A stretch of 64,000 bases of DNA from Candidatus Woesearchaeota archaeon (lineage in GTDB: Archaea > Nanobdellota > Nanobdellia > Woesearchaeales > ARS49). The translations under genes and the position numbers were made by a program. The stretch is taken from positions 64,994 through 128,993 of the forward strand of contig JAWADY010000002.1 in the NCBI GenBank assembly GCA_038891615.1, given 5' to 3'. This document shows positions 3-51,431 of the stretch, piece after piece. The notes beneath the pieces are model-generated. The model was not told the origin of the DNA, ran no database searches, and was given only the letters and a program-made list of their open reading frames with translations. Positions within the stretch are counted from its first letter, which is position 1. Every line of letters starts with the position of its first letter.

Positions 3-881
3 ATGTCAAAAAACGTCTTTGCGTTTAAGAAAGCACCGCCAGAATATCCCTACTCCCCATTCCCAAAACCGCCAATATTTCCTTCTGCACCAACATACGG
101 CTATTACGGTGATATAAGTATAGTGACTGAAAAAAGACTTTCTGCGGAGCTGAGCTCATACATAGAATCAAATATCCAAAGCTGCACTGATTGGTCAAGC
201 TTTGCACAGAAAGGGATTGATGTAAAAGTTGGTAAACCATCAGCGGATGTCCTTTTTGGAGACTCTGACACAACAGTCTCGCTTAGGTGGCGAATAGAGG
301 CAAAAAGCGGCCAGGCAGAAGCGGTCATAAACAAATTTGCAGCAAGCATTCCGGTTAGAATGAAGGTTGTACGTAACTATGCTCTCGAGATAGCCTCAAA
401 TGACACCCTTTACTATGACTATGAGCCTAGCAGTGCTCCAGCAGTCCAGGTTTTCAAAAGGGTTGATGGCAAAAGCGACATAATTCAAATCACAGATACG
501 CTTTCAAAAGTTGACACAAAACCGTTTATCTTCAGGTTTGCAAGAAAGAATAGGCCTCCTGTGCTTTTCGATTCTGATATTAAATTGCGATTTAATGAAA
601 TTTTTGCTTGCCCAGGCGATGTTATAAGTTTTGATGGCAAGACATTCAAAATAACTAAACAAAATGGTGACATTCGCTTTTCTTTTGCACCAAATGCAAC
701 AGATTTTGATGAAGATTCTAGTTTATCATTTAATGTTTCTGATAGAGGTGGTGAGCCCTTTCCTTTAAGCACAACTCAGCAAATGGCAAATATTGGTAAA
801 AGAGAACTAAGAATAGAAGTCAGTGATGGTCTTGAAAAAGATTGGTATGATGCAAGCCTGACTTTAAAAACAAAATGTTAA
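3..881 (+). CDS. Hypothetical protein, possibly 5'-truncated at the window edge. Its stop overlaps the start of the giant surface-protein gene (ATGTTAA overlap), so the two are probably co-transcribed.
   Basis: Long ORF beginning at base 3. No recognisable catalytic motifs. The TAA at 879-881 overlaps the ATG at 875 of the next gene. Confidence 0.45.
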   Translation: MSKNVFAFKKAPPEYPYSPFPKPPIFPSAPTYGYYGDISIVTEKRLSAELSSYIESNIQSCTDWSSFAQKGIDVKVGKPSADVLFGDSDTTVSLRWRIEAKSGQAEAVINKFAASIPVRMKVVRNYALEIASNDTLYYDYEPSSAPAVQVFKRVDGKSDIIQITDTLSKVDTKPFIFRFARKNRPPVLFDSDIKLRFNEIFACPGDVISFDGKTFKITKQNGDIRFSFAPNATDFDEDSSLSFNVSDRGGEPFPLSTTQQMANIGKRELRIEVSDGLEKDWYDASLTLKTKC

Positions 882-3800
882 GAAAAGAAGTTATTGGAAT
901 CTTTGTAGTGCTGTTCTTCGTAGTAATTGGAATCGCGGTCATTGCACAGGAAGAAAAAACAGGTTGTTGTTGTGATGAAAATGGAACTGCAATGGATTAC
1001 AGTCCTTTCCATACCCAAAATGAGTGCACTGATCCATTCACCATTCTTGTTCCACTTTCTTCAGAAAACATAAGCAAGTATACTCCTGACAACATCTCAA
1101 AAATATGTATAGACGCTTGTGGTGGTGCAGCCCCTAAGCCTTTACCATTGCCACTTGCTCCAAAAATAACTTTTTTTAAAGCAGAACCGTTGATGGGCCA
1201 AAAGAAATTTTTGCTCACCTGGGAGATAAATCAAACACCAAATGTCATCTATATAGACAGGTGCAAAGGAAATGACTGCACTAATTTTGGCAACATTGCA
1301 ACCTTTGCTGGAACCTCAAGGTCTTATGTCGATGATGATGCAAGCCTTGAGTGGCTAACAAATTACACCTACAGGTTGAGGATTGTCAATACAATTACAA
1401 GCCCACCACAAGAATCAAGCATGACAGCATCCTCAAGCCTTGGCGACATTGAGTGCTGGAATCGATTCGACAAAACTCCTTTCTGCATTTCAGAGTACTA
1501 CTATTGGAATGAGCCTATTCAGAGCTATCTCAAGAATTTTGGCTATTTTGGTTTCAGTTTCACTGATAATTTTGCAAGACAGGTGCGGACTGTTTTTGGA
1601 GTAACAAATCTTGACCACATAGGAAAGCTCGACTCAAGATGTCATGTGGTTGGCATAAACAGACTCAGTCAGTCTTCCTCAAGGTGCAAGAGCAACGAGA
1701 CTTGCCTTGTTGTGGATTCAAACACAATCTGCATAACCCCTTCACCTTGCGATACAAGCTTTAATGCAACCTCTGCTTCTTGTGAAAACACCCCTTCAGG
1801 TACTCCAAGCTATTGTTTCTCTGATAAGAGCCAAAGTGTTATTGAGCGCTGCTACAGTTGTGATAAAAGGATGAGCTGCTATGACTATCGTTCAAAAGAG
1901 GCCTGTGAGAGGGATGCATGCGGAATTGGAGATTGTATATGGAAGCCAACTTATGGAGCAATTGGAGTTGGAGTTTGCATCAATCCTTCTCAAAACAACT
2001 GTCTGCTTTGTGACAAGAAAACAGGAGACCTTCTTTCAGGCTTGGATTCAAAAAAATGGCCTAGTCTTTTGGCTTATAATGAGCTTTTTGACGCCTGCTC
2101 ACAGCTAAAGGCAGAAGCTCTTGGCAAATGCCTTGCCGTGACAGACCCTTCAACAGGAAAAACTTCTCCAAAGACTTGCGAACAAGCAACCTGCAGCGAT
2201 TATAAAACTCAGCAAGAATGTAATGCCGACACTTGTGGGTTGGGAATATGCAAATGGTTTGACTCACCCACCTTCCGCGGCTGTGCAAAGGATGCTGACA
2301 CCCCTCCTCAAGCCCCTGCAACAGATAGTGATGGTGATGGTATTCCTGATTGGTGGGAAATCAAGTATGGTTTGAATCCTAACAATCGTGATGATGCTGG
2401 TAGTGATTCTGATGGTGATGGCTTGAGCAATTTGGATGAATGGTTGCGTGGGACCCTTCCAAACAATCCTGATAGTGATGGTGATGGTGTCTCTGATCTT
2501 AATGATAATTGCCCTGGTACTCCTTCAAACACTTTTCAAGTTGATAGCAATGGGTGCCCTCTTCCTGTTAGTGATACCACTGATTCTGATGATGATGGTA
2601 TTCCTGATTGGTGGGAAAGAAAGTATGGTTTGAATCCTAACAATCCTGCTGATGCTGGTAGTGATTCTGATGGTGATGGCTTGAGCAATTTGGATGAATG
2701 GTTGCGTGGGACTCTTCCTAACAATCCTGATAGTGATGGTGATGGTGTTTCTGATCTTAATGATCAACATCCTGGTACTCCTTCAAACACTCAAGTTGAT
2801 AGCAATGGGCGCCCACCTCAAGGCAATGGCAAGCCGGATTGCATTGATCCAAACACAGGTGAAATAGATCCTGCGTGCGAAGCAGACAAGTGGTCACCTG
2901 AAACAGTCATTATCCCTGTGGGTGACAGAGGGGCTGTAAAATACCTATACATACAAATTACTGACCAGTTCAAAAGCACAGGTGAAAAATTAACTATTGC
3001 GCACTCTGGAACTGGAACAAAGGCAGAGTACTTTCCTAAAGGCTACAGCACTTTTCTTTGCGTTGGTAGCCTTTGCTCACCAAATGTTCGTGTGAACGCA
3101 ACTCCCTTGACTGTTGTAAATGGCTTCTTGACAATAAATGGTAAGCCTCTTGGACTGCAGCTTAAGGATGGTTCCAACATCTTAAGATTCTACTCACAAG
3201 ACCCTGCAAATAATAATGAACAAGTTAAGCAGCTAGAGGTGAATGCCTGCACAGGCTGTCAGGGACCTGCTCTCATTACTCCAATTGATATCGAAGGCGC
3301 AAGAATTGTAAATGGTGAGTATTATACAAAGCTAACACAGCCGCAAATAAAGCTATCCTTTGATGCAAAGGCAGAACTTGTTTTAAAGAGGCTTGTTTTT
3401 GGCAATTCTTTTACTGAGCTTAGCTCAAGCCCACAATCCGGCTTCAGCCAAAACTACACATTACTACCTCCTGAGCTAGCAGAAGCAAAGTATGTTCTGC
3501 AAATAAATGCTCGTGGAGAAAATGGAATCTCGAGCTCTAATACGCCTTACAGCTTCAATTTGACGATAGACAAAACCCCGCCACTCCTTTCATTCAATGT
3601 TGAACAAAACAGCATCTTAGAAAACCCAGACCAGTCTTTTGTGCTTAGCTTTAATGAGCCTGTCTTTGTTACTTCCATTTTTTTCGATGAAGAGCATGTT
3701 GCTCAAAATGGTCGCAAGTATGTTTTTACAAGAAATCTAACCTCTGAACTCAAGCAAGTGAATAGCAGCAAATATAACCTAACTGTTAATGGAATTCCTG

Positions 3801-6355
3801 ATGGGCATGTTGCGCTAAGAGTTACAGCAGAGGATTATGCCGGAAATACAATGGCTTCTGTGCTAAACTTTATTATTGACTCAACAGGCCCGGTCATTTC
3901 TCTGGCACAACCACTATTCGGAATTTCTGACAAGACACCATTTGACATTGTCGTTGAAACAGACCAGCCAGCTATCTGCAGATATTCAACAATTCAAAAT
4001 GTTGACACTGCGAGCATAAGCTATGATGCAATGGCAAAGTTCTACATACCTGAAAAACAAACCGCACAGCACATCATACAAGGCTTTGACGAGCTCACAG
4101 GAAAGCCAGAAAACACGCCCTGGAGGTTCTATGTTGTTTGCAAGGATGGCAAGCAACGCCAGTCTAACGAAACCTTCTGGCTGTCCGTTGATTCTGCTCC
4201 TCCAAAAATAACAGCTGCTTATGCAGAACCAAATCCAATCGTTGAGTACACAGACAGTGAGCTGCTAACAACACTGAAAGTCTCAACAGAACGCAGCTCC
4301 TTCTGCAGTTACAGCACAACAACCACGAGCTTTAGCCCTGAAAATGGTTTTGAAGGGACAGGCATAACTCCAAGGCAAGCGCACAATGCTGTGGTTAAAA
4401 TAACCACTTCTCCGACAACTTATAACATCGCTTGCATTTCACCAACCGATTATGGCAAAGCTGCGCCAAGAACAGCAACAGCAACAATAAAAATCACTGT
4501 TGACGTTGCAGCACCACTAACCATTTCCTGCAGCTATTGCCCTTCATTCTGGAATTCTACCACAAAAAACATATACCTGACCACAAACAAGCGCGCGCAA
4601 TGCTTCTGGACACTTGACAAGACAACCACTTCTTTTGGTACAGTTGGATATGAGCACAGCACCACTCTGAAAGTGCCATCTCTTGGCGAGAAAAAAGTGC
4701 TCTTTAGCTGCAATGCAGGCGCCCAAAGTGCAACCCTTGAGTATTCATTTCTTGTAGACAACAGCCCTCCTGTAATGCTCTATGTTAGTGATAACTCAAG
4801 CCTTAAAGAAGATACAGAGCATAGCTATTTCACAGATAGGTTAAGGGCAGCATGGCTCGGGCAGGATAATGAAAGTGGAATAACACGGTATTATTACTCT
4901 TTAATCGAAAAGGCAAACAACGCTGTTGTGATAAATTGTTCACCTGGCTCTCAACAAAACAATTGCCGATTCTCAACAGTACTTGATGGAAATTTCTTTG
5001 ACATTACGCAGGACCATAATGGAAAGTCGCTCAATTTAACAGACGGCTTTAGTTATTTCTTGAAGGTTTGGCCCCTAAATAGGGTTGGTCTTCTTGGAAA
5101 TCCAATGGACTCGGATGGAGTTGTAATAAACAAAAGCAAAAAGCCAGCTCACTGCAGCGATGGAATAACAAATGAAGGCGAATCAGGGCAGGACTGTGGT
5201 GGAGAGTGCGAGCCTTGTCCTGATGGTCAGCCTTGTAGGTCTGATTCGGACTGTCTCTCAAAAACCTGTATAGAAGGTTCGTGCAAGGCTCCGAGCTGTA
5301 CAGATTTAAGAAAGAATGGTAATGAAAGCTCAATCGATTGTGGTGGGAGCTGTCCAACAAAGTGCGAAGCTGGTAAAAGTTGTAACACTGACAGCGATTG
5401 CAAAACAGGACTAAGCTGTATATCTGGTGCATGCGCAGAACCAACAGCTTGCGAGAATGGTATACTTGATGGGCTTGAAACAGACATTGACTGCGGAAGG
5501 GTTTGTCCAACAAAATGCGCAGCTGGAAAGGGCTGTCTTGATAATAAAGATTGCGCTGATGGGCTATATTGTGTTAGTGGTGTTTGTTCTTCAACAACTC
5601 CAACCGCTGATTCTGATGGTGATGGTGTCACTAATGATCTTGACCAGTGCCCAAACACTCCGAAAGGTGAAAAAGTAGATAAAAACGGTTGTTCAGCAAG
5701 CCAGCGTGACACCGATGGAGATGGCATGAATGATGCTTGGGAGATACGCTATGGCTTTGATCCTGAGAATCCTGCTGATGCTTATACAGATGTCGATGCT
5801 GATGGCCTTAGTAATCTTGAGGAATTCAAGTTAGGAACTGATCCAAGAAACCCAGATACTGATGGTGATGGTTGGAGTGATGGGGCTGAGTTCAAGGCAG
5901 GAACAGACCCTCTAGACCCTGCCTCAAAGCCATCCGCCCCTATTGTGAGAGCTTTGCCATGGCTGTTGCTTGTTGCAATCCTTGCCATAGCCGGTTACGC
6001 AGCTTACAAGTACAGGAAGCAAATTGCTGCAATTTTTGTAAGGAAAAAGGTAATTCCTTTGCCAAAGCCGCCTGTGGTGTGGAGACCGCCACCAAGGCCT
6101 GTCCAAAGAGTTGTGCGTGTTCCAACAAGAGCAGAGTTAATCATTGAACAGCTTAGAAAGATTGCCCGAGCTACAAAGGCTGAAGAAGAGGAATACATTC
6201 CTGTAGAAGAGCTTGCCAGAAGGGCAGCTGCGCTAGAGCCAACAGAAGAAGTACTTAAGCATCTAAAGGCAGCAGTAAGAAAAAGCCCTGAGTTTGCAAG
6301 GGCTGCAGCTGCCCAGCCAAAGCTCAGAGCGATGCTCAAGAAAAAATCAAAATGA
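875..6355 (+). CDS. Giant cell-surface protein of 1826 aa. N-terminal hydrophobic signal/anchor. Central Cys-rich regions and Ig-like-looking stretches. Multiple TSP3 Ca-binding repeats (DxDxDGxxDxxD). Four tandem Cys-rich modules of about 45 aa. C-terminal single TM helix followed by a basic Pro/Lys-rich cytoplasmic tail of about 115 aa.
   Basis: Uninterrupted 5.5 kb ORF. N-terminus MLRKEVIGIFVVLFFVVIGIAVIA. Repeated DSDGDGIPDWWE, DSDGDGLSNLDEW and DSDGDGVSDLND motifs. CGGxCxxC..C..DSDC..G.C..G.C modules. TM segment ALPWLLLVAILAIAGYAAYKY near the C-terminus, then RKKVIPLPKPPVVWRPPPRP. Confidence 0.8.
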   Translation: MLRKEVIGIFVVLFFVVIGIAVIAQEEKTGCCCDENGTAMDYSPFHTQNECTDPFTILVPLSSENISKYTPDNISKICIDACGGAAPKPLPLPLAPKITFFKAEPLMGQKKFLLTWEINQTPNVIYIDRCKGNDCTNFGNIATFAGTSRSYVDDDASLEWLTNYTYRLRIVNTITSPPQESSMTASSSLGDIECWNRFDKTPFCISEYYYWNEPIQSYLKNFGYFGFSFTDNFARQVRTVFGVTNLDHIGKLDSRCHVVGINRLSQSSSRCKSNETCLVVDSNTICITPSPCDTSFNATSASCENTPSGTPSYCFSDKSQSVIERCYSCDKRMSCYDYRSKEACERDACGIGDCIWKPTYGAIGVGVCINPSQNNCLLCDKKTGDLLSGLDSKKWPSLLAYNELFDACSQLKAEALGKCLAVTDPSTGKTSPKTCEQATCSDYKTQQECNADTCGLGICKWFDSPTFRGCAKDADTPPQAPATDSDGDGIPDWWEIKYGLNPNNRDDAGSDSDGDGLSNLDEWLRGTLPNNPDSDGDGVSDLNDNCPGTPSNTFQVDSNGCPLPVSDTTDSDDDGIPDWWERKYGLNPNNPADAGSDSDGDGLSNLDEWLRGTLPNNPDSDGDGVSDLNDQHPGTPSNTQVDSNGRPPQGNGKPDCIDPNTGEIDPACEADKWSPETVIIPVGDRGAVKYLYIQITDQFKSTGEKLTIAHSGTGTKAEYFPKGYSTFLCVGSLCSPNVRVNATPLTVVNGFLTINGKPLGLQLKDGSNILRFYSQDPANNNEQVKQLEVNACTGCQGPALITPIDIEGARIVNGEYYTKLTQPQIKLSFDAKAELVLKRLVFGNSFTELSSSPQSGFSQNYTLLPPELAEAKYVLQINARGENGISSSNTPYSFNLTIDKTPPLLSFNVEQNSILENPDQSFVLSFNEPVFVTSIFFDEEHVAQNGRKYVFTRNLTSELKQVNSSKYNLTVNGIPDGHVALRVTAEDYAGNTMASVLNFIIDSTGPVISLAQPLFGISDKTPFDIVVETDQPAICRYSTIQNVDTASISYDAMAKFYIPEKQTAQHIIQGFDELTGKPENTPWRFYVVCKDGKQRQSNETFWLSVDSAPPKITAAYAEPNPIVEYTDSELLTTLKVSTERSSFCSYSTTTTSFSPENGFEGTGITPRQAHNAVVKITTSPTTYNIACISPTDYGKAAPRTATATIKITVDVAAPLTISCSYCPSFWNSTTKNIYLTTNKRAQCFWTLDKTTTSFGTVGYEHSTTLKVPSLGEKKVLFSCNAGAQSATLEYSFLVDNSPPVMLYVSDNSSLKEDTEHSYFTDRLRAAWLGQDNESGITRYYYSLIEKANNAVVINCSPGSQQNNCRFSTVLDGNFFDITQDHNGKSLNLTDGFSYFLKVWPLNRVGLLGNPMDSDGVVINKSKKPAHCSDGITNEGESGQDCGGECEPCPDGQPCRSDSDCLSKTCIEGSCKAPSCTDLRKNGNESSIDCGGSCPTKCEAGKSCNTDSDCKTGLSCISGACAEPTACENGILDGLETDIDCGRVCPTKCAAGKGCLDNKDCADGLYCVSGVCSSTTPTADSDGDGVTNDLDQCPNTPKGEKVDKNGCSASQRDTDGDGMNDAWEIRYGFDPENPADAYTDVDADGLSNLEEFKLGTDPRNPDTDGDGWSDGAEFKAGTDPLDPASKPSAPIVRALPWLLLVAILAIAGYAAYKYRKQIAAIFVRKKVIPLPKPPVVWRPPPRPVQRVVRVPTRAELIIEQLRKIARATKAEEEEYIPVEELARRAAALEPTEEVLKHLKAAVRKSPEFARAAAAQPKLRAMLKKKSK
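2324..2830 (+). repeat. Near-identical tandem duplication of two copies of about 258 nt inside the giant surface-protein gene. Each copy encodes an 86-aa TSP3-repeat block. A third degenerate copy is near 5608-5940.
   Basis: Copy 1 at 2324-2581 and copy 2 at 2582-~2830 share long identical strings (gattctgatggtgatggcttgagcaatttggatgaatggttgcgtggga...). The protein blocks are DSDGDGIPDWWEIKYGLNPNN...DSDGDGVSDLND and DSDDDGIPDWWERKYGLNPNN...DSDGDGVSDLND. Confidence 0.8.
5146..5590 (+). repeat. Four tandem Cys-rich modules of about 45 aa, encoded by about 135-nt units, in the C-terminal extracellular part of the giant protein.
   Basis: Protein segments CSDGITNEGESGQDCGGECEPCPDGQPCRSDSDCLSKTCIEGSCKAP / CTDLRKNGNESSIDCGGSCPTKCEAGKSCNTDSDCKTGLSCISGACAEP / CENGILDGLETDIDCGRVCPTKCAAGKGCLDNKDCADGLYCVSGVC share the same Cys spacing. 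Confidence 0.6.
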
Positions 6356-6852
6356 GACTTGGCCAAATAGTTGGGCAAATATTTCTTTTCTTGTTGGCAA
6401 CAATTGTTTTTGTTTTTATAGTTGTTTATGGCTATCGCGCAATAGGCAACCTTGTTGCAAAAGGTGAGCAAGCAGACCTAGTGCGATTCAACAGCGAGCT
6501 CAGTTCCGCAGTTAGTGCTATATCCCTTGACTATGGCAGCGTGCGTTGCCTAGAGCTCAGCCTTCCAAAAAGATATAGAACCTTTTGTTTTGTCGGGCAG
6601 GAGCCTGACATAGGCGCACTTTCCTTGGTCAGCCCATTAATTGCAAGTGCTGTCCAGTCAGGGATTAAGCAAAATGTTTTTTTAATCCCCCCTTCACCGC
6701 TTCAACTATATCTAGAAAAGGCAACGACAAAAGCAGAGGGAGGATTTTTTTGCATAAATACAAGCGGACCAACAAATCGCTTGCTACTCAGGCTTGAAGG
6801 TGGCGCAGGAGGAATTGCAGAGCTACAAAAATGGCAAGGAGCAAGCTGTTAA
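6352..6852 (+). CDS. Small pilin-like or membrane protein with a class III-like N-terminus (RLGQIVGQIFLFLLATIVFVFIVV).
   Basis: Start overlaps the stop of the giant gene (ATGA). N-terminal basic residue followed by G-Q and a hydrophobic segment of about 22 aa. Confidence 0.4.
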   Translation: MRLGQIVGQIFLFLLATIVFVFIVVYGYRAIGNLVAKGEQADLVRFNSELSSAVSAISLDYGSVRCLELSLPKRYRTFCFVGQEPDIGALSLVSPLIASAVQSGIKQNVFLIPPSPLQLYLEKATTKAEGGFFCINTSGPTNRLLLRLEGGAGGIAELQKWQGASC

Positions 6853-7820
6853 TTCCAAAGCACAGAAAAGGCCAGATAGAAGCGCCAGTAAGTTGGATAT
6901 TCATACTTATTGCAGGAGCTGTAATCCTTCTTTTTTTCTTTTCAACAACCATTAAGTTGCGTGACATTGCAAAACAAAAGCTTTCAATAACCCTTTTGTC
7001 AAACTTAGATGCACTCATCTCTAGCTCATCCGTTGCAAAAGGTACAAGCCAGCTGCTGCCGATTTATGACCAGCAACTTGTTTTTGAATGTACACAGGCT
7101 TGTCTTTGCGAGCTTTCAGTCCTTGGCGCAAAAAAGCCATTTAAAGACAGGCTGATTTTTGCTCAGCAAAAGGTTTTTGGAAGAAATGCGCTATTTTGGG
7201 CTCTTGACTGGAAGGAGCCATTCAGGATTGCTAATTTTCTTTACATAACAGACAGCTCAAGCAAATATTGGTTGGTTGGGGATTCGAGCAGCGAACCACT
7301 TAAGACAATAAAGTTCCTCCTTCCTAAGAATCTTAGTGCGGAGTTCGTAGACTCCACCCAAAACATCAAGCCAGGAAATTTCAAGAAAAGCAGGATTGTT
7401 CTTTTTGACAAAGCACTGGATGAAAGCCTTGCAGATAGTTTTCCCAAAGCATCTGAGCTAACATTACTTGTTGTCAACACCCAGAACAAAGAGCTTAAGT
7501 GGTACAAGAGAAAAGGTAGCAAGCTGGAAGTGCTGTCAAATGAAGGGGCGGATAACTACAAAAGCATTCCCCATCTTTTGGGAGCAATTTTTAGTGACGA
7601 GCCGCAGCTTTACGCCTGCCAACAAGCAGCTTCTGAGGACAGGAAAGCGGCCATAAAAGAAATCTATGTTGCACGTGTGCAAAAATTGATGCAAATTGTG
7701 CCAGAAGAACGTGGTTGCAGCGCGCTTTACGAAGAGACGTTCAAAAACATTAACGCTCCTGAGGCGCTTGAGGAGATTAATGAGGAATTGCTAAAAAAGA
7801 GTTGTCCAACAATATACTAA
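6831..7820 (+). CDS. Pilin-like protein with a class III signal peptide (RKG|QIEAPVSWIFILIAGAVILLFFF).
   Basis: KGQ motif followed by a hydrophobic helix, as in archaeal type IV pilin precursors. No other recognisable domain. Confidence 0.45.
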   Translation: MARSKLLIPKHRKGQIEAPVSWIFILIAGAVILLFFFSTTIKLRDIAKQKLSITLLSNLDALISSSSVAKGTSQLLPIYDQQLVFECTQACLCELSVLGAKKPFKDRLIFAQQKVFGRNALFWALDWKEPFRIANFLYITDSSSKYWLVGDSSSEPLKTIKFLLPKNLSAEFVDSTQNIKPGNFKKSRIVLFDKALDESLADSFPKASELTLLVVNTQNKELKWYKRKGSKLEVLSNEGADNYKSIPHLLGAIFSDEPQLYACQQAASEDRKAAIKEIYVARVQKLMQIVPEERGCSALYEETFKNINAPEALEEINEELLKKSCPTIY

Positions 7821-7821
7821 A

Positions 7822-8352
7822 ATGGCAAACAATGCATCTCCAAGCAAAAAGGCTCAGATAAAGATGTTTGAGAATATCGCTGTCCTCGTGATATTCTTTT
7901 TTCTTCTGGCTTTTGGTACAAGCTTTTACTTTACACTTCAAAAAAGTTCCCTTCAGCGTGAAATGGAACGCATTGCGCAGCTTGGAAACATTCAGCAGGC
8001 GCTTAGGCTTACATTCTTACCAGAGCTTGACTGCTCATTTGCTGCTGTACAAACTGAAAATTGTTTTGACAGGCTTAAGTTTGATGCTCTTGCAGATCAG
8101 CTTAAACCAGGTAGCCAGCGATGGCTTGAGTACTCTGCAATCCTTGGTTTTACTAGTATAAAACTAAAGACTGTTTATTCCAGCCTCTCTCCCCCGCCTG
8201 AAGAGAAACTTCTGTACGAAAGAAAGCTGAACGCAACTGCAATTCGCACAGAGATTCCTGTCTTGATTTGTGAAAACGGTTGCGACCCGCTAAATCAAAG
8301 CTATTCCTTCGGCATCCTTGAGGTGACAAGCTATGTTAGAAGGGCAACCTGA
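7822..8352 (+). CDS. Pilin-like protein with a class III signal peptide (KKA|QIKMFENIAVLVIFFFLLAF).
   Basis: KAQ motif plus hydrophobic helix. Tightly packed with its neighbours (2-nt spacing). Confidence 0.45.
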   Translation: MANNASPSKKAQIKMFENIAVLVIFFFLLAFGTSFYFTLQKSSLQREMERIAQLGNIQQALRLTFLPELDCSFAAVQTENCFDRLKFDALADQLKPGSQRWLEYSAILGFTSIKLKTVYSSLSPPPEEKLLYERKLNATAIRTEIPVLICENGCDPLNQSYSFGILEVTSYVRRAT

Positions 8353-8854
8353 TGGCATTGCTGTGTTGAAGGGATTAAAGAGAGCAAAAGGCGGGCAAAT
8401 GGAAATAATTGGTCTAACAATCATCATTCTTCTTGTTATAATTGGGGTGCTTTTTGGAATACAGTTTGTGCTCAAGGCAAAGCCGCCCACAATTGGACGA
8501 GAGTTTAGGGAATCGCAGTACGCAGCCAACTTCCTAAGCACTCTTACAGGTACAACAAGCGCATGTAATGGTTTGAGCATCACACAACTTTTACAGAACT
8601 GCGTGACAAGGACAGGGATTGACTGTCCATCAGGAAAGGGTGCTTGTGAGGAGGTTGAGGCTCTTATAGAAACAATCCTTGATAAAACAATTGGCAAGTC
8701 GGGACAAAACAGAGCATACCAACTTATGGTAAAAGGCAGCAACATTGACATTACTAAGTCTAATCGGGGAGGATGTCCGGGCGAAAAAGAGGTTGCAGAA
8801 CACACACTTCCAACAAGAGCTGGAGTAGTTTCTATACGCCTCGAGTTGTGCTAA
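8333..8854 (+). CDS. Pilin-like protein. The true start is probably the in-frame GTG at 8363 or the ATG at 8399, which would give RAKGG|QMEIIGLTIIILLVIIGV.
   Basis: Class III-like motif followed by a hydrophobic helix. The ORF-track start overlaps the previous gene by 20 nt, which argues for a later start. Confidence 0.4.
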   Translation: MLEGQPDGIAVLKGLKRAKGGQMEIIGLTIIILLVIIGVLFGIQFVLKAKPPTIGREFRESQYAANFLSTLTGTTSACNGLSITQLLQNCVTRTGIDCPSGKGACEEVEALIETILDKTIGKSGQNRAYQLMVKGSNIDITKSNRGGCPGEKEVAEHTLPTRAGVVSIRLELC

Positions 8855-11763: not shown

Positions 11764-11901
11764 AATCCTTTGAAATGGTGCTTTGTATATAAAGTTTTCT
11801 ATAGGTATATAATTAAATTTTTATTATATATTTTAAGATAACTTATATATTTTAAGCATAAAATATATACTTTTGTTAATGCACTCACCTAAAAAAAGGA
11901 G
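11764..11901. promoter_or_regulatory. AT-rich divergent promoter region between the AbrB-PhoU regulator gene (minus strand) and the Lrp/AsnC regulator gene (plus strand). It contains multiple TATA-like boxes and a direct repeat of tatatattttaag.
   Basis: About 138 bp with >80% A+T (ttatatattttaagataacttatatattttaagcataaaatatatac). GGAGGTG lies upstream of the ATG at 11902. Confidence 0.5.
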
Positions 11902-13366: not shown

Positions 13367-13508
13367 AGTTTTTATACGCAAGAGCCACTTGATTTTTTAT
13401 GCACAAAAGAGGCGTTGAAAAAAGCACTTTGTTATACCTCATCCTAATCCTTATCTTTCTTGCGCTTGCAGCCTATATTCTTGTGAGAATTGCTGGGAGG
13501 ATTTTTGG

Positions 13509-14225
13509 ATGAGCCTGCTCATTGTCAGAAGGAAGGGAATAACAGAAACAGGATTAGTGGCAATAATCCTTGTCCTTGCCTCTGGCATTGTTCTTGGAGC
13601 TCTTGTCTATCAGTTTACTGTTAAGGGGAAGCAGGTTGGCTCTATCGAGCTTTGCAGACAGAATGTGCTAACTGCTAGCAAAGTTGTAGCGCTTGGCAAA
13701 GCAGATATTTGGCCAATCACCAACTGCTTTACAGAAGACCTTGGCAAACTTCCAGAAAAAGAAGAAGAAGCCATTACTCTGATTGCCGAGGGTATTAGGA
13801 AGTGCTGGTACATGTGGGGCGAAGGAAAGCTAACTCCATGGAGCTCTACATGGCTATCAAGAAACATCATGTGTCATGTTTGTACGATGTTTGAGCCAAG
13901 CGCAGAAGTGAGTATTGAAAAGCTTCATGGTTGGATGAGGACTCACAACATTCCTGGCAAAGAATTAACCTACTATGACTTTTTGAAAGAAGGCTACATC
14001 CCTTTCATCTATCCAGCACTTGAAGAAGAAGCCAAAGCCAAAAAAGTTGACCTCACAAAAGGAATGAAATGGGCTGTCTTTTATGCCTATGGAACGCGCG
14101 CGGATTGGCTAAGATTTCCCCTCATTGGTGGACTTGTGCTTGAAGAACCAAAACAAGGCGTTGCCTTCCTGCCGACAAATGAACTCGGAGGCATATGTAC
14201 ATATACTACGATAAAACTCAAATGA
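13509..14225 (+). CDS. Pilin-like protein with a class III-like N-terminus (RRKG|ITETGLVAIILVLASGIVLGALVY) and an extracellular domain of about 200 aa.
   Basis: Basic N-terminus, G at -1, T/E-rich +1 to +5, hydrophobic helix. No catalytic motifs. Confidence 0.45.
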   Translation: MSLLIVRRKGITETGLVAIILVLASGIVLGALVYQFTVKGKQVGSIELCRQNVLTASKVVALGKADIWPITNCFTEDLGKLPEKEEEAITLIAEGIRKCWYMWGEGKLTPWSSTWLSRNIMCHVCTMFEPSAEVSIEKLHGWMRTHNIPGKELTYYDFLKEGYIPFIYPALEEEAKAKKVDLTKGMKWAVFYAYGTRADWLRFPLIGGLVLEEPKQGVAFLPTNELGGICTYTTIKLK

Positions 14226-15145
14226 AAAGGGCGCAAGTAACAACACAGACACTCTTGGTAGTGCTCGTGCTTTTACTCGTAGCAGCTGTCATCTTTATTT
14301 CTTTTCAGACAAGACTCTTTGGCTTAGCAGAAGCCAAAAGTGCAAAGGATGTTTGCAAAACTTCTGTCTATGCCAATGCGCTGCTTGGAAGAAGTGTTGG
14401 AATCTTTTCTTCGGATATAAAATGTCCAACTCAGTATCTTCAGATAGACAATAGTGATGTTGCACATGCAAAGTTTGAGATTGCAAAAGCTCTGTCAGAT
14501 TGTTGGGAACAATTTGGAGAAGGCAGGCTTGAGCTTTTTTCTGGAGAAGGTGTTTTTTGTTCCGTATGTCATTTGATAACTTTTAAGCACAAAGAAAAAG
14601 CAATAAGCGGGCTTTTAGACTATCTTGCAACTAACAAAAAACCCCTTACTGACAAAAGCTATCTTGATTATCTAACAAGCTATCACACTTCAGGAAGCGA
14701 GGTTCTTAAGGCATATGCAGCTGAAAAGCTCCCGCCTGACATTCTTGACCCATCGCGAGGCAACACCTATGCAACAATCTTCTACTATGTCAAGGGTAAA
14801 GACCATGTGAAGGATGTTATTGAAAGAGCCCAAGCAGCAGCACCTGGCATTGGGCTTGAAGCACTTGGTATCGGATTGATAAAGGCAGGCAGTGCAACAG
14901 CTGGCTTGATTTCAGCAACCGGCATTGGTGCGCCTCTAGGTGTAGTTGTTGCAAAGGTCTCAACAATTGTCGGCGGAGTTTTGATTGTTGGCGGAGCAGG
15001 CTATGCCCTCCTCGCTGGTTGGTTCGGCGGAGTCCCTGTAGAATTCCTCTCACAAGTACGCCTCGAGCCTTACAACGAGCAAACGCTTAAAAACCTCGGA
15101 TGCCAAATCCTGCCTGCAGCTGAAAAAGCAGAGGTTGGAAGGTGA
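14222..15145 (+). CDS. Pilin-like protein (MKRA|QVTTQTLLVVLVLLLVAAVIF) with a C-terminal glycine-zipper hydrophobic segment of about 70 aa.
   Basis: The start is taken at the internal ATG that forms an ATGA overlap with the upstream stop. The C-terminal segment is GIGLEALGIGLIKAGSATAGLISATGIGAPLGVVVAKVSTIVGGVLIVGGAGYALLAGWFGG. Confidence 0.45.
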   Translation: MKRAQVTTQTLLVVLVLLLVAAVIFISFQTRLFGLAEAKSAKDVCKTSVYANALLGRSVGIFSSDIKCPTQYLQIDNSDVAHAKFEIAKALSDCWEQFGEGRLELFSGEGVFCSVCHLITFKHKEKAISGLLDYLATNKKPLTDKSYLDYLTSYHTSGSEVLKAYAAEKLPPDILDPSRGNTYATIFYYVKGKDHVKDVIERAQAAAPGIGLEALGIGLIKAGSATAGLISATGIGAPLGVVVAKVSTIVGGVLIVGGAGYALLAGWFGGVPVEFLSQVRLEPYNEQTLKNLGCQILPAAEKAEVGR

Positions 15146-15284
15146 TGAAAAAAGGCATATCCCGCGAGGCATTTGTTTACATACTCTTGGCACTTATTGC
15201 AATCCTCATTGGAGTAATCTTGATAATTTTTTGGGGAGGCGGGGCAGAAAAGGTCCTTAAGTCTCTTGGTTTGGGATAGCTCAA

Positions 15285-15641
15285 ATGGACAAAAAAGCTG
15301 TTGCAATAGAAACAATAGTCATCCTTCTCCTTGCACTTGTTGCTCTCCTTTTCTTTACAGTCCTTGGAGGAAAGCAGCTTCAATTGGGCAAGAAAATAAG
15401 CTTTTTCATGCCGGGCTGCCCAAAGGGTGTTTTAATAACCACAGAATGTCCATGTGATGGCCAAAAGATAAGTTCAGGTTATTGCTGTGATTTTGGACCA
15501 AGCCAAAAGCCTTGCTTTTGCGTAGAGCGAAATGTTAATAAGTGCGAGGATTACAAAAAGCAAGAGGATTGTGTAAGCAATCCTTGCCAAGTTCAAACTG
15601 CTTGCACCTTTGAACAAGGTGTTTGCAAAAGGGCTGGTTAA
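15285..15641 (+). CDS. Small Cys-rich pilin-like protein (MDKK|AVAIETIVILLLALVALLFF) with about 14 Cys in an 80-aa head.
   Basis: Class III-like N-terminus, with Glu at +5 as in type IV pilins. Cys-dense C-terminal region (CPKGVLITTECPCDG...CCDFG...CFC...). Confidence 0.5.
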   Translation: MDKKAVAIETIVILLLALVALLFFTVLGGKQLQLGKKISFFMPGCPKGVLITTECPCDGQKISSGYCCDFGPSQKPCFCVERNVNKCEDYKKQEDCVSNPCQVQTACTFEQGVCKRAG

Positions 15642-15645
15642 ATAA

Positions 15646-16071
15646 ATGGCAAAAAAAGGGGTAAGTGGAATACAGGTCGTCATAGCACTTTTGATTGGCA
15701 TCATAGTGCTCTATGTTGTTGTGGCTTTTATGCAAGCACAGTTCAAGAAGGCTGGAAAGAGTATCGAGGAAATAACTCCTTCCACAATCAGCTTTGCGCT
15801 GCAAGGCTGCAGGCTCCAAGCCGCACGAGGTTTTTCTGATGCAGATAAGGATGGATATCCCGACTTTTGTGATGTCTGCGAAGGCGGTGATGACGGAAAG
15901 CACAGCGATGCTGACTGGGTTCCAGATGATTGTGATGCGCATGAAAAAACAAAAGGGCTTCCTGCAAAGGAATGTGGTTGTGAAAAGCCAGAAATGGATT
16001 CTGAAGGCAGGCTGATAAAGAGCTGTGGGAGGCTTCTTTCAATCGAGCCATTTAAGTGCGCGAAAAAATGA
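15646..16071 (+). CDS. Small pilin-like protein (MAKKG|VSGIQVVIALLIGIIVLYVVVAF) with an Asp-rich TSP3-like Ca-binding motif and a Cys-rich head.
   Basis: Head contains DADKDGYPDFCDVCEGGDDGKHSDADWVPDDCD followed by several Cys. Confidence 0.5.
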   Translation: MAKKGVSGIQVVIALLIGIIVLYVVVAFMQAQFKKAGKSIEEITPSTISFALQGCRLQAARGFSDADKDGYPDFCDVCEGGDDGKHSDADWVPDDCDAHEKTKGLPAKECGCEKPEMDSEGRLIKSCGRLLSIEPFKCAKK

Positions 16072-16088
16072 ATTTGGTAAAATGAAAA

Positions 16089-16949
16089 ATGAGCAAAAGG
16101 AAAGGCCAGGAAGAAGTTGGAAGGATGCTTTGGGAACTTGTTGCGCTGATACTGGCAGTAACTGTTATCATTGGAGGGATATTGTTTTTTGGAAGGGCAT
16201 TTGGATTTATTGGTGAGAGCAAAGAGGAACAGGACACAATCTCAAGCTTTTACAGCCTTGCAACAAAACTAAACGAACTGGCGCTGCTTTCAGAGTCATT
16301 CGTTCATGACAGGCTACCACTTTTTATTGGGGAAGGATTTGTAATTGTTGGCTTTGACAAAGCTGGAGATATTTCTGTCAATGGTTGCAGCGATGAAACA
16401 CATCTTGGAGTTCCAGCTACTGACCTCATCCCAAAGCCAGAGTTCTGTGGCGAGTTTGCTTGCATATGCCTCTATTCTGGCATTAGCGAAGAAGTCGGCG
16501 AGAAGCAGCCAATTTCTTGTGCCAAAATTTTCGCTGACAGATTGATTGGCTTGAGTAGTGCGTATCTTGAAAAAAACTATCCCTCTTTTGAGTCTTTTTG
16601 GAAAAACGCAATGGGCTCTCGTAGGGATAAGCCAGAACTACAAAGGTTCATGGTAACAGGGACAGAGCCTTTTAGCACTCTTCTCGAAAAAGACTATCCT
16701 CTTTTCCCAAGCTTTGAAAGCTACCCCTATACCTATTTTGTTCTTCATGGTGAGTGTGAAAACTGGTGGTTTGATGCCAACTTTGGCACACAAAGCCTCT
16801 ATCTTGAAAAAGTGAGGATAAAAGACAGGAACTATTTATTTATCACCGCAGACATCGAGGACTTTGTAAACAAAAGGGTTGCTGCAATAAAGGATTGGCT
16901 AGAGAAGCAAAAGAGTCAAGAGAAAGCCGAGGGAGGGCTGGTTGGTTGA
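16089..16949 (+). CDS. Pilin-like protein (MSKRKGQ|EEVGRMLWELVALILAVTVIIGGILFF), 286 aa.
   Basis: KGQ motif plus hydrophobic helix. No other domain recognised. Confidence 0.45.
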   Translation: MSKRKGQEEVGRMLWELVALILAVTVIIGGILFFGRAFGFIGESKEEQDTISSFYSLATKLNELALLSESFVHDRLPLFIGEGFVIVGFDKAGDISVNGCSDETHLGVPATDLIPKPEFCGEFACICLYSGISEEVGEKQPISCAKIFADRLIGLSSAYLEKNYPSFESFWKNAMGSRRDKPELQRFMVTGTEPFSTLLEKDYPLFPSFESYPYTYFVLHGECENWWFDANFGTQSLYLEKVRIKDRNYLFITADIEDFVNKRVAAIKDWLEKQKSQEKAEGGLVG

Positions 16950-17784
16950 AATGGTTGTGATTGGCAAGCGAGCCGTTGTTCATCCAGTTGCTCTGACAAT
17001 TGCAGAGCTTATTTTAGCCGCAATTATTGTCCTTGCAATGTACAATTTTGCCTCAAGGGCAAGAGAGCCTGGAAGGCTTGAAAAAGAGTTTGTTGCAAAA
17101 GACCTTGGCTTGCTGCTTGACGCCGTTTCCGTTGGCCAAGGGAGTTACTATTTGGTTTACACATCACCAGCCCTTCATCAAGATTTCAAGATTTCTGCAG
17201 GCGCCCACGAGGTTGTTGTTGATGGCTCAAGGCAGCCCTACGCATCTGGGCGTATAGAAATAAAAGGAGATTCCTTTGGAACAGATAAACTTGTGATCTG
17301 GTCTGAAACTGGAATTCTTGGCACGCCTTCAGCAGTCAAAGGTCACCTGCTACAGCTTCCTTGCGAAAGCCCACTGTCTTTTTCAACTGATAGGCAGCTT
17401 GCGGTAGCTGCTGATGATGGTGCCAAACAACTTGTTGAAAGACTTTTTGTCAAGGACTTAGGGAAAAGGCTGTTGTCAAATGATGAGAAAGGCGCAAGTG
17501 CGCTATTAAAAATTTTCACAGGAACAAAAAATGGGACAGCGAAGGCATATTTTTGGAAGGATGATAAGTCAGCAAGGTCGCTTGCATGCGCCCTTTTGAA
17601 CAGCATTGTCGCTTTTGAAGGAACCAATTCAGCCCTTCTTCTTCCGCTTAATCCTGAGCTTGCACCAAAGCGTTTTGCAGAGCTTGAGAAACAAAAGCCA
17701 GCTGTCTTCCTCGAGCTAGGCCCAGACCTTATTTCAAGCCCTGAACTTGCTCAGGCACTTTATGGTGGTGTTCGAAGTGGCTGA
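16942..17784 (+). CDS. Pilin-like protein (GKRA|VVHPVALTIAELILAAIIVLAMY), 280 aa.
   Basis: Class III-like N-terminus. Overlaps the previous gene by 8 nt (operon-like packing). Confidence 0.4.
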   Translation: MVEMVVIGKRAVVHPVALTIAELILAAIIVLAMYNFASRAREPGRLEKEFVAKDLGLLLDAVSVGQGSYYLVYTSPALHQDFKISAGAHEVVVDGSRQPYASGRIEIKGDSFGTDKLVIWSETGILGTPSAVKGHLLQLPCESPLSFSTDRQLAVAADDGAKQLVERLFVKDLGKRLLSNDEKGASALLKIFTGTKNGTAKAYFWKDDKSARSLACALLNSIVAFEGTNSALLLPLNPELAPKRFAELEKQKPAVFLELGPDLISSPELAQALYGGVRSG

Positions 17785-18325
17785 AAGGCAACAAGCAAAC
17801 ATTTTTAGCAAAAAGGCTCAACTCCTTAGCCATCACACAAAATTTCTTTTCATAAGCCTTCCATTTGTTATTATCTCCGCTCTTGCGTTGTTTCTTCTCG
17901 CAAACAGGTTTCTTGAAATAAGAGTAAATACCTTTCCCCTCGAGGCAAACGCATTTGTTGAAAGCATACTCTACTCATCTGCTGGGCTGGCTTATGTTGA
18001 CAATGTAACCGGGATTACCTATTCTGGAATCATAGACATCACAAAACTTGAAGAAAAGGACATTGGAAAAAGGTTGTCTAAGGCTTTTAACTATGGTGAA
18101 GGGCAAAGTTACCTTGCAGCAAAGCTTCTGATTGGTGATAGGACAATTTTCTATAACAACGAACCAGAAGCACCTTGGTATGACCGCTGGAAACCAAAGG
18201 TTGGGCTCAAGGGTGCTGGCGGAGTGCAATCGGTTACTTTTGTTAAATATGTGCTCATCAAAAATGGAAGTATGTTAGAACCTGCAACCGTTTACATAGA
18301 GTTGCTCAAGCCTGGTGAGGGCTAA
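17747..18325 (+). CDS. Membrane or pilin-like protein, start uncertain. There is a hydrophobic helix FLFISLPFVIISALALFLLA after KKA|Q.
   Basis: ORF packed between pilin-like genes. The predicted N-terminal helix begins about 35 aa in, so the true start may be downstream. Confidence 0.3.
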   Translation: MLRHFMVVFEVAERQQANIFSKKAQLLSHHTKFLFISLPFVIISALALFLLANRFLEIRVNTFPLEANAFVESILYSSAGLAYVDNVTGITYSGIIDITKLEEKDIGKRLSKAFNYGEGQSYLAAKLLIGDRTIFYNNEPEAPWYDRWKPKVGLKGAGGVQSVTFVKYVLIKNGSMLEPATVYIELLKPGEG

Positions 18326-18900
18326 TGGTAATAAATGGAAGAAAAGGCGTTGTTGGGGAGCTATTAGTTGCATTTCTCTCTTTTGCAGGCCTTGCTCTTA
18401 CAATCCTACTCTTCACTTTCATATTCTCTCCAGCAGACTTTCCTGGTCCTCAAACTTTGACCGTGCTTAATGAAGGAGAAACAGATGGCAAACTTAGACT
18501 GCTGACCATTCTTCGCTCACCAGTTGTTTTTGATGGGGAGAAAATAGATTTTGCAGACATGATTGCACTTTGGCAAGGAAAGCAAGAGCCGCTCGAAAGC
18601 ATTCTTCACTCAGAGCTTGAAAAGCTGCTTAATAACAAGCTAAGTTATGAGTTCGAGCATGCTGGTGTCAAATTTGTGCGCACTTATGCTTTTGCCATTT
18701 ATAGCATAAAAGACGATTTAAGTCGTGGCAAAGAACTAATGAAAGTAGAGGCAAGCGGCTATTCAGGAGGTAAAGAAATAGCCTCAACTCATGTTGCATT
18801 AAAGGATGGCAATGTGCTTGAGGTTGTGCTATTTTCAAGCGCGCAAAAAAAGCCATCCAAAACTCCTGTTTCGAGCGCTTCATCCATACCTATAAAATAA
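18325..18900 (+). CDS. Pilin-like protein (GRKG|VVGELLVAFLSFAGLALTILLFTFIF), 191 aa.
   Basis: Class III-like motif. ATGG overlap with the upstream stop. Confidence 0.45.
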   Translation: MVINGRKGVVGELLVAFLSFAGLALTILLFTFIFSPADFPGPQTLTVLNEGETDGKLRLLTILRSPVVFDGEKIDFADMIALWQGKQEPLESILHSELEKLLNNKLSYEFEHAGVKFVRTYAFAIYSIKDDLSRGKELMKVEASGYSGGKEIASTHVALKDGNVLEVVLFSSAQKKPSKTPVSSASSIPIK

Positions 18901-18901
18901 A

Positions 18902-19870
18902 ATGGTCAAATCAAACAAACGCGCAACAATCTTTTTTGAACCACTAATACTTTTGGGGTTAATCGTTGCTCTTAGCATCGCAGCTATTTCTGTTAGCCAA
19001 AAAAGGTCCTCTTTTGGAACAATTGGCAGACCAGCTGCTGACCTTCTTAATTACAATGACTTTGGTGAAGAACTTCTTTTTAAGGTTGAACAAGCAGCGA
19101 GGTTTGCAGTTCGCGATGCGCTTTATGAGTTGGGTGCAAATGGTTGGAGTGCTGAAGGTCCAAACTTAGGTTGTGATAGCCAGCCAATTGGCAAGCCTTT
19201 GCTTATCGAGAGCTTTCCTACACCACAGGAGATTGTTGAAGAACTAACAAAAATTTCTGATAGGAAGCTTAGGGCTTATTCGCTCAGGGCTTCGCAGCTC
19301 CTTGGTCTTGGGAGGTTGGGCTTCCACTTGCCAACAGGTATTGAATATGAGTGGTTTGTTGAGCACTCTGGTGGGCTGTTGAGAGTGAGTGGCATTGCTG
19401 ACAAGCCAGTTACCTTCTCATTTAGCTCATACGAGGTAGGTAAACCAACACTCTACGGCCAGCCGCTGCCACTGCCAACTGCTTCAGTTGTTTTTATTCC
19501 TCTTGAACGTCCAAAACAGCCAGAAGCCCTGCTCTTGCTTTATGGCAATTATTCGATAAGGCCGTCCTTCACAGTCTGGATAGATTACGACCTTTTCGGC
19601 GTCTATGAAAGAATAAAAGAAGGCGTTGAGCAACTCAAAACAATCATTCAGGAAAACAGGGCTCTTGGTTTTGAGGTGACAGACCTGGCGCTCAAAAACA
19701 AAGTCAAGGAGCTGAATTCTGCGCAGGGAGAGCTTGTTTGGCAAGTCCCTAAGAGGACAAGTGAAGATCCGGCTATCTACTCTTTTGTTATTTCTCATAA
19801 GAAGCAGCTTTTAGGATGCAGTCAGCCTATTCAAATAAGGTTTGCGATGAGAATTCCATTAGCTGCTTGA
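18902..19870 (+). CDS. Pilin-like protein (SNKRA|TIFFEPLILLGLIVALSIAAISV), 322 aa. It is the last gene of the array.
   Basis: Class III-like motif with Glu at +5. Begins 1 nt after the previous stop. Confidence 0.45.
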   Translation: MVKSNKRATIFFEPLILLGLIVALSIAAISVSQKRSSFGTIGRPAADLLNYNDFGEELLFKVEQAARFAVRDALYELGANGWSAEGPNLGCDSQPIGKPLLIESFPTPQEIVEELTKISDRKLRAYSLRASQLLGLGRLGFHLPTGIEYEWFVEHSGGLLRVSGIADKPVTFSFSSYEVGKPTLYGQPLPLPTASVVFIPLERPKQPEALLLLYGNYSIRPSFTVWIDYDLFGVYERIKEGVEQLKTIIQENRALGFEVTDLALKNKVKELNSAQGELVWQVPKRTSEDPAIYSFVISHKKQLLGCSQPIQIRFAMRIPLAA

Positions 19871-51385: not shown

Positions 51386-51431
51386 TTTTCCTTTAAATTA
51401 AAGAACTCTTTTAAAGTTTTCCAGTCGTTCG

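Follow-up and report, generated by a model that had tools for sequence, protein, structure and literature searches.

Background

Large adhesin-like proteins are frequently encoded in archaeal type IV filament loci (bioRxiv 10.64898/2026.04.22.720090). Large cysteine-rich proteins with a C-terminal transmembrane (TM) helix have likewise been described in pilus loci of Thermoproteales (Makarova et al. 2016, PMC4858521). Both texts draw an analogy with PilY for archaea. In this article, we analyse a 64,000-nucleotide stretch of the genome of a Candidatus Woesearchaeota archaeon (assembly GCA_038891615.1, contig JAWADY010000002.1, positions 64,994 to 128,993 of the forward strand), hereafter the window, and in particular its gene for a giant surface protein of 1826 amino acids (aa), which lies among pilin-like genes. 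The locus resembles the published ones in that many pilin-like genes surround the gene of a large secreted protein rich in Cys, for which a C-terminal TM helix has been described in one case. It differs in that the published cases come from other lineages (Thermoproteales, Euryarchaeota), Woesearchaeota being mentioned in neither text, and that the descriptions include no conserved cytoplasmic domain of 100-270 aa; the comparison is by description. What is new relative to the known large proteins of pilus loci is 1) an unannotated family of giant proteins, 2) its conserved cytoplasmic domain and 3) its fixed pilin-like context.

The bacterial PilY1/PilC tip adhesins, together with the minor-pilin priming complex FimU-PilVWXE, provide a second comparison: there, as here, a very large adhesin gene lies amid four or five minor-pilin-like genes, and Ca-binding sites are a further common feature. 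However, in a Pfam scan the giant protein has neither a beta-propeller nor a DUF2341 domain, and it is membrane-anchored, whereas PilY1 has no C-terminal TM helix or tail. The lack of such a domain and the membrane anchor rule out a PilY1/PilC homologue.

Mycoplasma pneumoniae P1 and the integrins are type I adhesins with tails coupled to internal machinery. Like them and like the apicomplexan TRAP family (PMC5015959), the giant protein combines a large ectodomain, a single TM helix and a conserved tail that bears motifs, and the organisms that carry these adhesins, like the one studied here, live in close contact with other cells or are parasitic on them. The tail motif resembles that of TRAP-type adhesins in that an acidic stretch is followed by Trp or Tyr (EEEEYIPV in our protein, D-R-D-W-I-P-L in relatives). 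The likeness is one of functional analogy only; there is no homology in sequence or fold, and no actin, myosin or cytoskeletal partner has been identified for the giant protein.

Finally, repeats of the TSP3 type (DxDxDGxxDxxE) are shared with Myxococcus MtsD and CglD, with the Akkermansia Amuc_1099 family and with the PA1041 anchor, and several TSP3-repeat proteins of this group have roles in the cohesion of cells, in adhesion during gliding or in pilus-like systems. These matches differ from a family relationship in that they comprise the 40-50-aa repeats only, the remainder of the proteins being unrelated, and all but Amuc_1099 fall far below the cut-off (for MtsD, 60 versus 800).

We propose, with a probability that we put at roughly 0.55, that Woesearchaeota-type DPANN archaea have a type IV pilus-like apparatus of their own, in which the giant protein serves as the membrane-anchored adhesin or stalk subunit. 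The attachment of DPANN archaea to their hosts is largely unexplained and, to our knowledge, no Woesearchaeota have been cultured. The locus defines a candidate apparatus of one giant type I protein and five pilin-like proteins, encoded in a fixed order in 63 species-level genomes.

Architecture and topology of the giant protein

The giant gene and the segments of its product are as follows (window positions).

875..6355, + strand: giant gene, 1826 aa plus stop, ATG start, with collinear homologues
875..949, + strand: predicted Sec-type signal peptide, aa 1-25 (...AVIAQ/EEK), from hydropathy at residues 6-24 and an n-h-c layout common to all relatives
950..2314, + strand: Cys-rich N-terminal head, aa 26-480, with 50 invariant alignment columns, mostly Cys
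1166-1438, + strand: predicted FN3-like sandwich within the head, aa ~98-188, from an AlphaFold2 (AF2) model (predicted local distance difference test, pLDDT, ~90) and Foldseek
2324..2839, + strand: internal TSP3 block, aa 484-655, two tandem ~86-aa copies (484-569 and 570-655) with three DxDxDG motifs each; the DNA copies are identical at 227/261 positions
2840..5134, + strand: central stalk, aa 656-1420, about five putative Ig-like modules of ~100 aa, from boundary motifs, a Big_13 match and ~31% identity collinear with relatives
5153..5587, + strand: three 8-Cys modules, aa 1427-1571, from Cys spacing; the same modules occur in family members
5609..5929, + strand: membrane-proximal TSP3 repeats, aa 1579-1685, with four DxDxDG motifs; most relatives also have TSP3 repeats just before the TM helix
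5951..6007, + strand: C-terminal TM helix, aa 1693-1711 (hydropathy 2.17), ending in the family's G-Y-x-x-Y aromatic belt
6008..6352, + strand: cytoplasmic tail, aa 1712-1826, a P/K/R linker followed by conserved blocks; Cys-free and amphipathic, with alignment and profile significance

The ATG of the giant open reading frame (ORF) overlaps the stop codon of the upstream ORF and its stop codon overlaps the ATG of the next one (ATGA at 6352); because start and stop codons overlap on both sides, the genes around it are tightly packed. A chance ORF or an artefact of gene calling is ruled out by the homologues, which are collinear with the protein at ~30% identity over its whole length; the homologue search suggested in an earlier reading of the window, made from the sequence without database searches (the sequence-only reading), thus did find relatives.

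The protein has two hydrophobic segments only, at residues 6-24 (peak 3.3) and ~1693-1711 (peak 2.17), according to a Kyte-Doolittle analysis with a 19-aa window. All 78 Cys residues (34 of them within residues 31-470) and all 21 N-x-S/T sequons are N-terminal to the second segment, which is followed directly by a positively charged stretch, KYRKQIAAIFVRKK. The giant protein thus has type I topology, with a Sec-type signal, an ectodomain rich in Cys and sequons, a single TM helix and a positive stretch after it. The sequence-only reading had described a giant type I-like surface protein with a large Cys-rich N-terminal region, a TM helix in its hydrophobic C-terminal stretch and a tail of 115 aa, and our analysis agrees with it in each of these respects. 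The TM helix of the homologue P0001 was modelled by AF2 as a helix with pLDDT >90, and the G-Y-x-x-Y belt at the end of the helix is present in most relatives.

Archaeal surface glycoproteins with a hydrophobic C-terminal segment include the substrates of the PGF-CTERM/archaeosortase system, to which the giant protein is alike in this respect. However, the PGF tripeptide is absent before and in the TM segment (...SAPIVRALPWLLLVAILAIAGYAAY), no NCBIfam CTERM model matches at E<=0.01, and the TM helix is followed by 115 aa (100-273 aa in relatives) where PGF-CTERM substrates have a short basic cluster. The lack of the motif and the long conserved tail rule out such a substrate, in line with the earlier view that this is not a typical PGF-CTERM anchor; because the tail is conserved, it is not a cleaved sorting signal.

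The giant protein is also not itself a type IV pilin or another protein with a class III signal, which its Sec-type N-terminus rules out. Its N-terminus, MLRKEVIGIFVV...AVIAQ/EEK, has no class III signal in a test for a basic start, a [KR]-[GA]-[Q/A/L/F] site and a hydrophobic helix of ~20 aa, and the signal peptides of its relatives have Sec sites of the A-x-A type followed by GCC(C). Every family member carries G-C-C-(C) ~5-8 residues from the predicted cleavage site (for example, GCCCD or GCCSNP; in the window GCCC at aa 30-33, positions 962-973). Two or three consecutive Cys residues at a mature N-terminus are unusual, and a disulfide knot, metal binding or lipid modification are candidate causes.

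The AF2 model of the head, based on an alignment of 10 sequences, is confident for the FN3-like part only, the Cys-rich core (model residues 265-392) being unreliable. For the FN3-like part, the best Foldseek matches in the PDB are all FN3 or FN3-containing structures (E ~1e-4).

Ten D-x-D-x-D-G motifs are found, six in aa 484-630 and four in aa 1579-1670, and the Pfam model TSP3_bac (PF18884) scores 74 bits against a cut-off of 25, which places the protein among TSP3-repeat proteins and substantiates the multiple DxDxDG Ca-binding repeats of the sequence-only reading. Nothing beyond TSP3_bac, Big_13 and TSP_3 (PF02412) was found in the Pfam scan of the giant protein (E<=0.1), and the NCBIfam scan gave matches to TSP3 repeats only. 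Among the latter, the Amuc_1099 model (NF042425, 321 positions) scores 59.6 against a cut-off of 50, a sum over four short stretches; the best of them, in which aa 488-534 align with profile positions 106-152, is part of the TSP3 repeats; the score appears to be driven by the repeats and we do not place the giant protein in that family. The internal TSP3 block is a lineage-specific and recent tandem duplication, because relatives have no such block at the equivalent position. Its second copy has lost the Cys pair of the first (C546/C561, replaced by H and R).

In the stalk, boundary motifs of the form D-x-[STA]-x-P occur at aa 899, 1002, 1106, 1210 and 1295, that is, at a spacing of ~100 aa, and Big_13 matches at aa 958-1002; the spacing and the match fit about five Ig-like modules. 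The Cys modules that follow had been counted as four knottin/EGF-like units. Cys modules are indeed present, but the spacing of the Cys residues indicates three 8-Cys units of ~47 aa each (1427-1470, 1475-1520 and 1526-1571).

The cytoplasmic tail

The 115 residues of the tail of the window's protein (the query) include A18, K15, R14, P13 and E12 and have a net charge of +17. Of the Pro/Lys/Arg-rich tail of 115 aa that had been described from the sequence, the length and the basic charge stand, but Pro richness is limited to the first ~40 residues; the remainder is amphipathic and predicted to be helical. It contains four blocks, namely ELIIEQLRKIA, EEEEYIPVEEL, EEVLKHLKAAV and KLRAML, and the tails of the closest subfamily align with them collinearly as E-L-x-x-L-[RK]-x-[IF]-A, [DE]-x-[DE]-[WY]-I-[PS]-[LV]-x-x-L, F/V-x-x-L-x-x-L-[RK]-x-[IA]-A and P-L-x-x-L-R-x-M-L. 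A profile constructed from the tails of relatives without the query gives the query tail 29.1 bits (E 3e-8), as against a mean of -0.55 bits and a maximum of 10.6 for 500 composition-preserving shuffles of the same tail.

Statistics of the tail refer to the 55 members, the query among them, whose 3' ends are complete; the duplicate or artefactual calls L008, L054 and L056 were left out. A TM helix followed by a tail of 100-273 aa (median 151 aa) is present in all but two members, of which one is a fused ORF and the other is broken by masked bases. The tails contain a single Cys in total, or 0.01 per 100 aa compared with 5.82 in the ectodomains, and sequons occur at 0.08 per 100 aa compared with 1.13. 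The contrast in Cys and sequons is a clear inside/outside signature. Conservation of the tail in homologues had been put forward as a check by the sequence-only reading, and these comparisons answer it in the affirmative.

An exhaustive HMMER search of 1.84e9 representative proteins with a profile of the TM helix and tail gave 38 matches at E<=1e-3, all at extreme C-termini. The 26 of these that were read are family-type proteins or fragments, and the full-length ones nearly all begin with the G-C-C(C) head. A generic modular C-terminal anchor shared by many surface proteins is thus ruled out; because the search finds only C-termini of the family type, the tail is specific to the family. It has no match to any Pfam family, PDB sequence or solved fold.

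For a long-form tail, that of P0001, the AF2 model (alignment of 19 sequences) consists of the TM helix, a disordered linker, three moderately confident helices and a confident terminal helical unit (pLDDT 82-94) with the sequence pattern ...GKL[ST]xxExExLFxKL[KR]ITAxYYxxHKxELxKEL... About half of the family ends in such a 'TAxYY' helical unit; in about half, the end is formed by K-rich 'EDVFxKLKEIAK' repeats. The query tail stops right after its KLRAML block and, although it keeps the four conserved blocks, is without the terminal helical unit of ~55 aa. A premature stop or frameshift is ruled out as the cause, given that no remnant of the terminal block is present in any frame at the query locus, the stop codon overlaps the start of the next gene and other members are short-tailed as well. 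The query tail is therefore a natural short variant, as in several other members. Taken over the family, the tail is a conserved domain rather than filler, and a new cytoplasmic domain with recognisable motifs. These motifs also resemble WH2/LKKV, LIR or YxxPhi motifs, a likeness on which we base no claim.

Gene neighbourhood and distribution of the family

In a scan of one genome per prokaryotic species, the giant family was found at 63 loci on 63 different contig accession prefixes (related loci are numbered L001 and so on where they need to be told apart), and the protein appears to be single-copy per genome. The genomes are titled Woesearchaeota, Nanoarchaeia or Nanoarchaeota, apart from a few with the generic title 'archaeon' and many with 'uncultured Methanosarcinales', which we take to be placeholder names. 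Archaeal marker genes are present in the window (RadA, RPA, GatE, TruD) and at L001 (MCM, TBP). The family genes are unannotated, being currently 'hypothetical' in these genomes, and we found no description of the family in the literature.

The genes next to the giant gene and those farther downstream are listed below.

3..881, + strand: gene C, 3' part, cut by the window edge; ~400 aa with a class III signal in relatives; orthologues at E 1e-15 to 5e-26 in L001-L004
6352-6852, + strand: gene E, pilin-like, class III-type N-terminus and hydrophobic helix
6831-7820, + strand: gene F, pilin-like, class III-type N-terminus and hydrophobic helix
7822-8352, + strand: gene G, pilin-like, class III-type N-terminus and hydrophobic helix
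8333-8854, + strand: gene H, pilin-like, class III-type N-terminus and hydrophobic helix
8857..10827, - strand: Ser/Thr kinase, kinase domain at aa 18-271 (Pfam Pkinase, E 6e-43), convergent with the operon
12544-12798, 12810-13079 and ~13091-13366, + strand: three small major-pilin-like genes, 84-92 aa; homologues downstream in 32 related loci
13399-13512, + strand: TM mini-ORF of 37 aa after the small pilin-like genes
13509..19870, + strand: nine further genes with pilin-like N-termini, assigned by the N-terminal motif

Genes E to H form an overlapping set (6352..8854), each with a [KR]-[GAS]-Q/F signal followed by a hydrophobic helix (for example, RKGQIE, KKAQIK, KGGQME), and the class III signal motifs are kept in the orthologues of C, E, F, G and H (window and L001-L005). 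Gene C precedes the giant gene in nearly all loci. Five contigs with homologues of ~30% identity have the same order, C-giant-E-F-G-H, with neighbours orthologous at E 1e-8 to 5e-48; gene C of L005 is shorter and was detected by a hidden Markov model (HMM), having been missed by blastp. When HMMs for C, E, F, G and H were applied to the 63 loci, this order was found in every locus with enough sequence. The invariant pilin-like operon, which the sequence-only reading had overlooked, is the decisive context; it speaks for a type IV pilus-like apparatus and against an adhesin that acts by itself.

The operon bears directly on an explanation of the giant protein as an S-layer-like or envelope protein, perhaps forming a specialised patch for passage of the pilus, in which the tail would be a stop-transfer, positive-inside anchor and spacer. 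Proteins of this kind have been suggested to prime the wall for filament passage (bioRxiv 10.64898/2026.04.22.720090), and the protein is apparently single-copy per genome; its heavy content of sequons and Cys suits an envelope glycoprotein. Yet a gene for a bulk S-layer protein would not usually be a constant member of an operon that has five pilin-like genes, the Pfam scan shows no known S-layer domain (for example, DUF1608 or the SlaA type), and a few basic residues suffice for an anchor, whereas 100-273 aa with collinear blocks and a confidently folded terminal unit have been kept in nearly all members. On balance we hold this explanation to be unlikely.

Another explanation starts from the gene order itself. 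PilY1/PilC proteins are encoded in operons with minor pilins, and here the giant gene does lie with five class III-signal genes in invariant order, their pilin nature being assigned by the N-terminal motif. A large adhesin-like gene with about five minor-pilin-like genes mirrors the bacterial fimU-pilVWXY1E layout, and the giant protein might be a type I precursor that is cleaved in or near the TM helix by a rhomboid-type or other protease, its ectodomain joining the minor-pilin complex at the tip in the manner of PilY1 and the tail fragment staying behind or signalling. The end of the TM helix, AIAGYAAY, is rich in small residues and of the kind that intramembrane proteases can accept. Against such shedding, neither a protease gene nor a cleavage motif was identified, the PilY1/PilC and DUF2341 domains are missing as stated above, and a protein that is merely shed needs no conserved, folded cytoplasmic domain; we regard a shed tip adhesin as quite improbable.

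The kinase lends itself to a third explanation. The sequence-only reading had suggested that the tail may be coupled, for example, to the adjacent kinase or to the cytoskeleton, and an adhesin-kinase signalling pair would use the tail, as substrate or scaffold, to couple ligand binding outside the cell to a membrane Ser/Thr kinase. Some 2.5 kb separate the giant gene from the Pkinase gene downstream of it, which occurs again at L002 and L007, and a weak TM segment together with the C-terminal domain of ~350 aa could place part of the kinase outside. The gene is, however, on the opposite strand with four genes between, and a kinase domain is present in 2 of the 36 related loci whose sequence continues for at least 5 kb beyond the giant gene, L001, L003, L004 and L005 having none. 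Among the tail residues of the query there are 3 T, 2 S and 2 Y; no Ser or Thr in its blocks is conserved across the family, and the sole conserved aromatic position, in block 2, is mostly Trp in relatives. Since adjacency is limited to 2/36 loci and the tail has few Ser/Thr/Tyr, none of them conserved in the query's blocks, a dedicated adhesin-kinase pair is unlikely; the kinase is probably not part of the system, and the coupling to it proposed earlier is not supported. Signalling of this type strikes us as very improbable. The weak hydrophobic segment of the kinase is at aa ~284-305, and the ~350-aa C-terminal region after it, which has no Pfam match, may be a sensor domain that faces outward.

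Between the two blocks of pilin-like genes (window 10879-12393) lie an AbrB/MazE-PhoU fusion gene on the - strand and an AsnC/Lrp regulator gene on the + strand. The former is present in 16 related loci and an AsnC-type regulator in 16, both together in 15, which makes them far commoner than the kinase; their products are candidate regulators of the pilin genes. Three of the nine further pilin-like genes were tested against Pfam and gave no match. The mini-ORF that follows the small pilin genes recurs in several loci as a product of 37-47 aa that is essentially one TM helix (window 13399-13512; L001 19711-19854; L002 20576-20698).

Upstream of gene C, in a region beyond the left edge of the window, L001-L005 encode one or two Sec-secreted proteins of ~365-1370 aa, and the conserved cluster extends there. 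One of these proteins ends, at or near its C-terminus, in the conserved motif W-x-D-L-[ST]-x-K-L-R-[LI], the motif-bearing protein of L005 carrying PEGA domains, and another, in L002, carries a Laminin_G_3 domain. At L004, an IS605 OrfB/TnpB-like gene with a Cas12f1-like TNB domain (5926-7074, - strand) is inserted between the gene of an upstream secreted protein and gene C.

Proposed function

The window also contains candidate assembly machinery, 32 kb from the giant gene.

38265-40454, - strand: polytopic 729-aa protein that may be a platform; adjoins the ATPase gene
40483-42780, - strand: T2SSE/FlaI-type ATPase with an N-terminal extension of ~370 aa, candidate assembly machinery

An ATPase with an N-terminal extension and an apparently single large platform gene are also the features of 'system 2' of the archaeal type IV filaments, the window's ATPase being assigned by resemblance only. 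From the gene content we infer that the giant protein associates physically with the pilin-like proteins and depends on this distant ATPase and candidate platform, whose tie to the giant gene is likewise inferred only. The proposed mechanism is as follows. The five pilin-like proteins would be processed and assembled into a short pilus, a pseudopilus or a priming complex. This complex would act together with the ectodomain of the giant protein, whose reach could be tens of nanometres and which would bind a host cell or surface. The tail would dock the assembly to a partner in the cytoplasm, for which the pilus ATPase or platform is the most plausible candidate; alternatively, it may act at the inner membrane face via its repeated amphipathic 'phi-x-x-L-[KR]-x-phi-A' helices. 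Docking to a partner or to the membrane face is probable because nothing else in the conserved module is cytoplasmic.

Several points weigh against a membrane-anchored subunit of a pilus-like apparatus. The pairing of the giant protein with the pilin-like proteins and with the ATPase is a suggestion from the gene content. Genes E to H match no Pfam or NCBIfam family, pilin models included, so that the pilin assignment of the neighbours is by N-terminal motif only. None of the related loci has an ATPase or platform gene within 10 kb of the giant gene, and no prepilin peptidase was found among the polytopic ORFs of the window that were scanned. Because of its TM helix and folded tail, the protein cannot travel at the tip of a pilus in the way proposed for PilY1. 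No relative of known function was detected for the tail, and its variability would also fit a loosely constrained role.

A more specific proposal, which we offer tentatively and consider doubtful, is that the tail is an adaptor-binding module through which the pilus motor or another intracellular scaffold is connected, by mechanical means or by signalling, with the extracellular fibril that binds the host and with the pilin-like partners of that fibril. If this were true, the tail would be an archaeal counterpart of integrin, TRAP or P1-type linkages with which DPANN archaea could hold or manipulate their hosts, and its 'phi-x-x-L-K-K-phi-A/S' helices and acidic-Trp/Tyr-x-x-Leu motif would be binding motifs of a previously undescribed kind. 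For the membrane-anchored pilus-like adhesin or stalk subunit in general, engagement of a pilus motor or scaffold by the tail would mean a previously undescribed archaeal adhesin that is coupled across the membrane; if the tail does not engage either, the family is still useful as an annotation marker for these genomes.

Other features of the window

A 231-aa protein with an N-terminal TM helix (26554-27249, + strand) gives weak thioredoxin-like matches (TraF, HyaE; E ~1e-3). A possible identity is that of a disulfide oxidoreductase acting outside the cytoplasm, which would be of interest given how many Cys-rich surface proteins are encoded in the window.

Rfam reports an 84-nt tRNA at 56876-56959 (+ strand; 57.7 bits) that ARAGORN does not report, and which may carry an intron or a long variable arm. 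Two adjacent genes for class II aminoacyl-tRNA synthetases of the Asp/Asn/Lys type (50075-52739, - strand; 436 and 435 aa) probably encode AspRS and AsnRS, or else paralogues.

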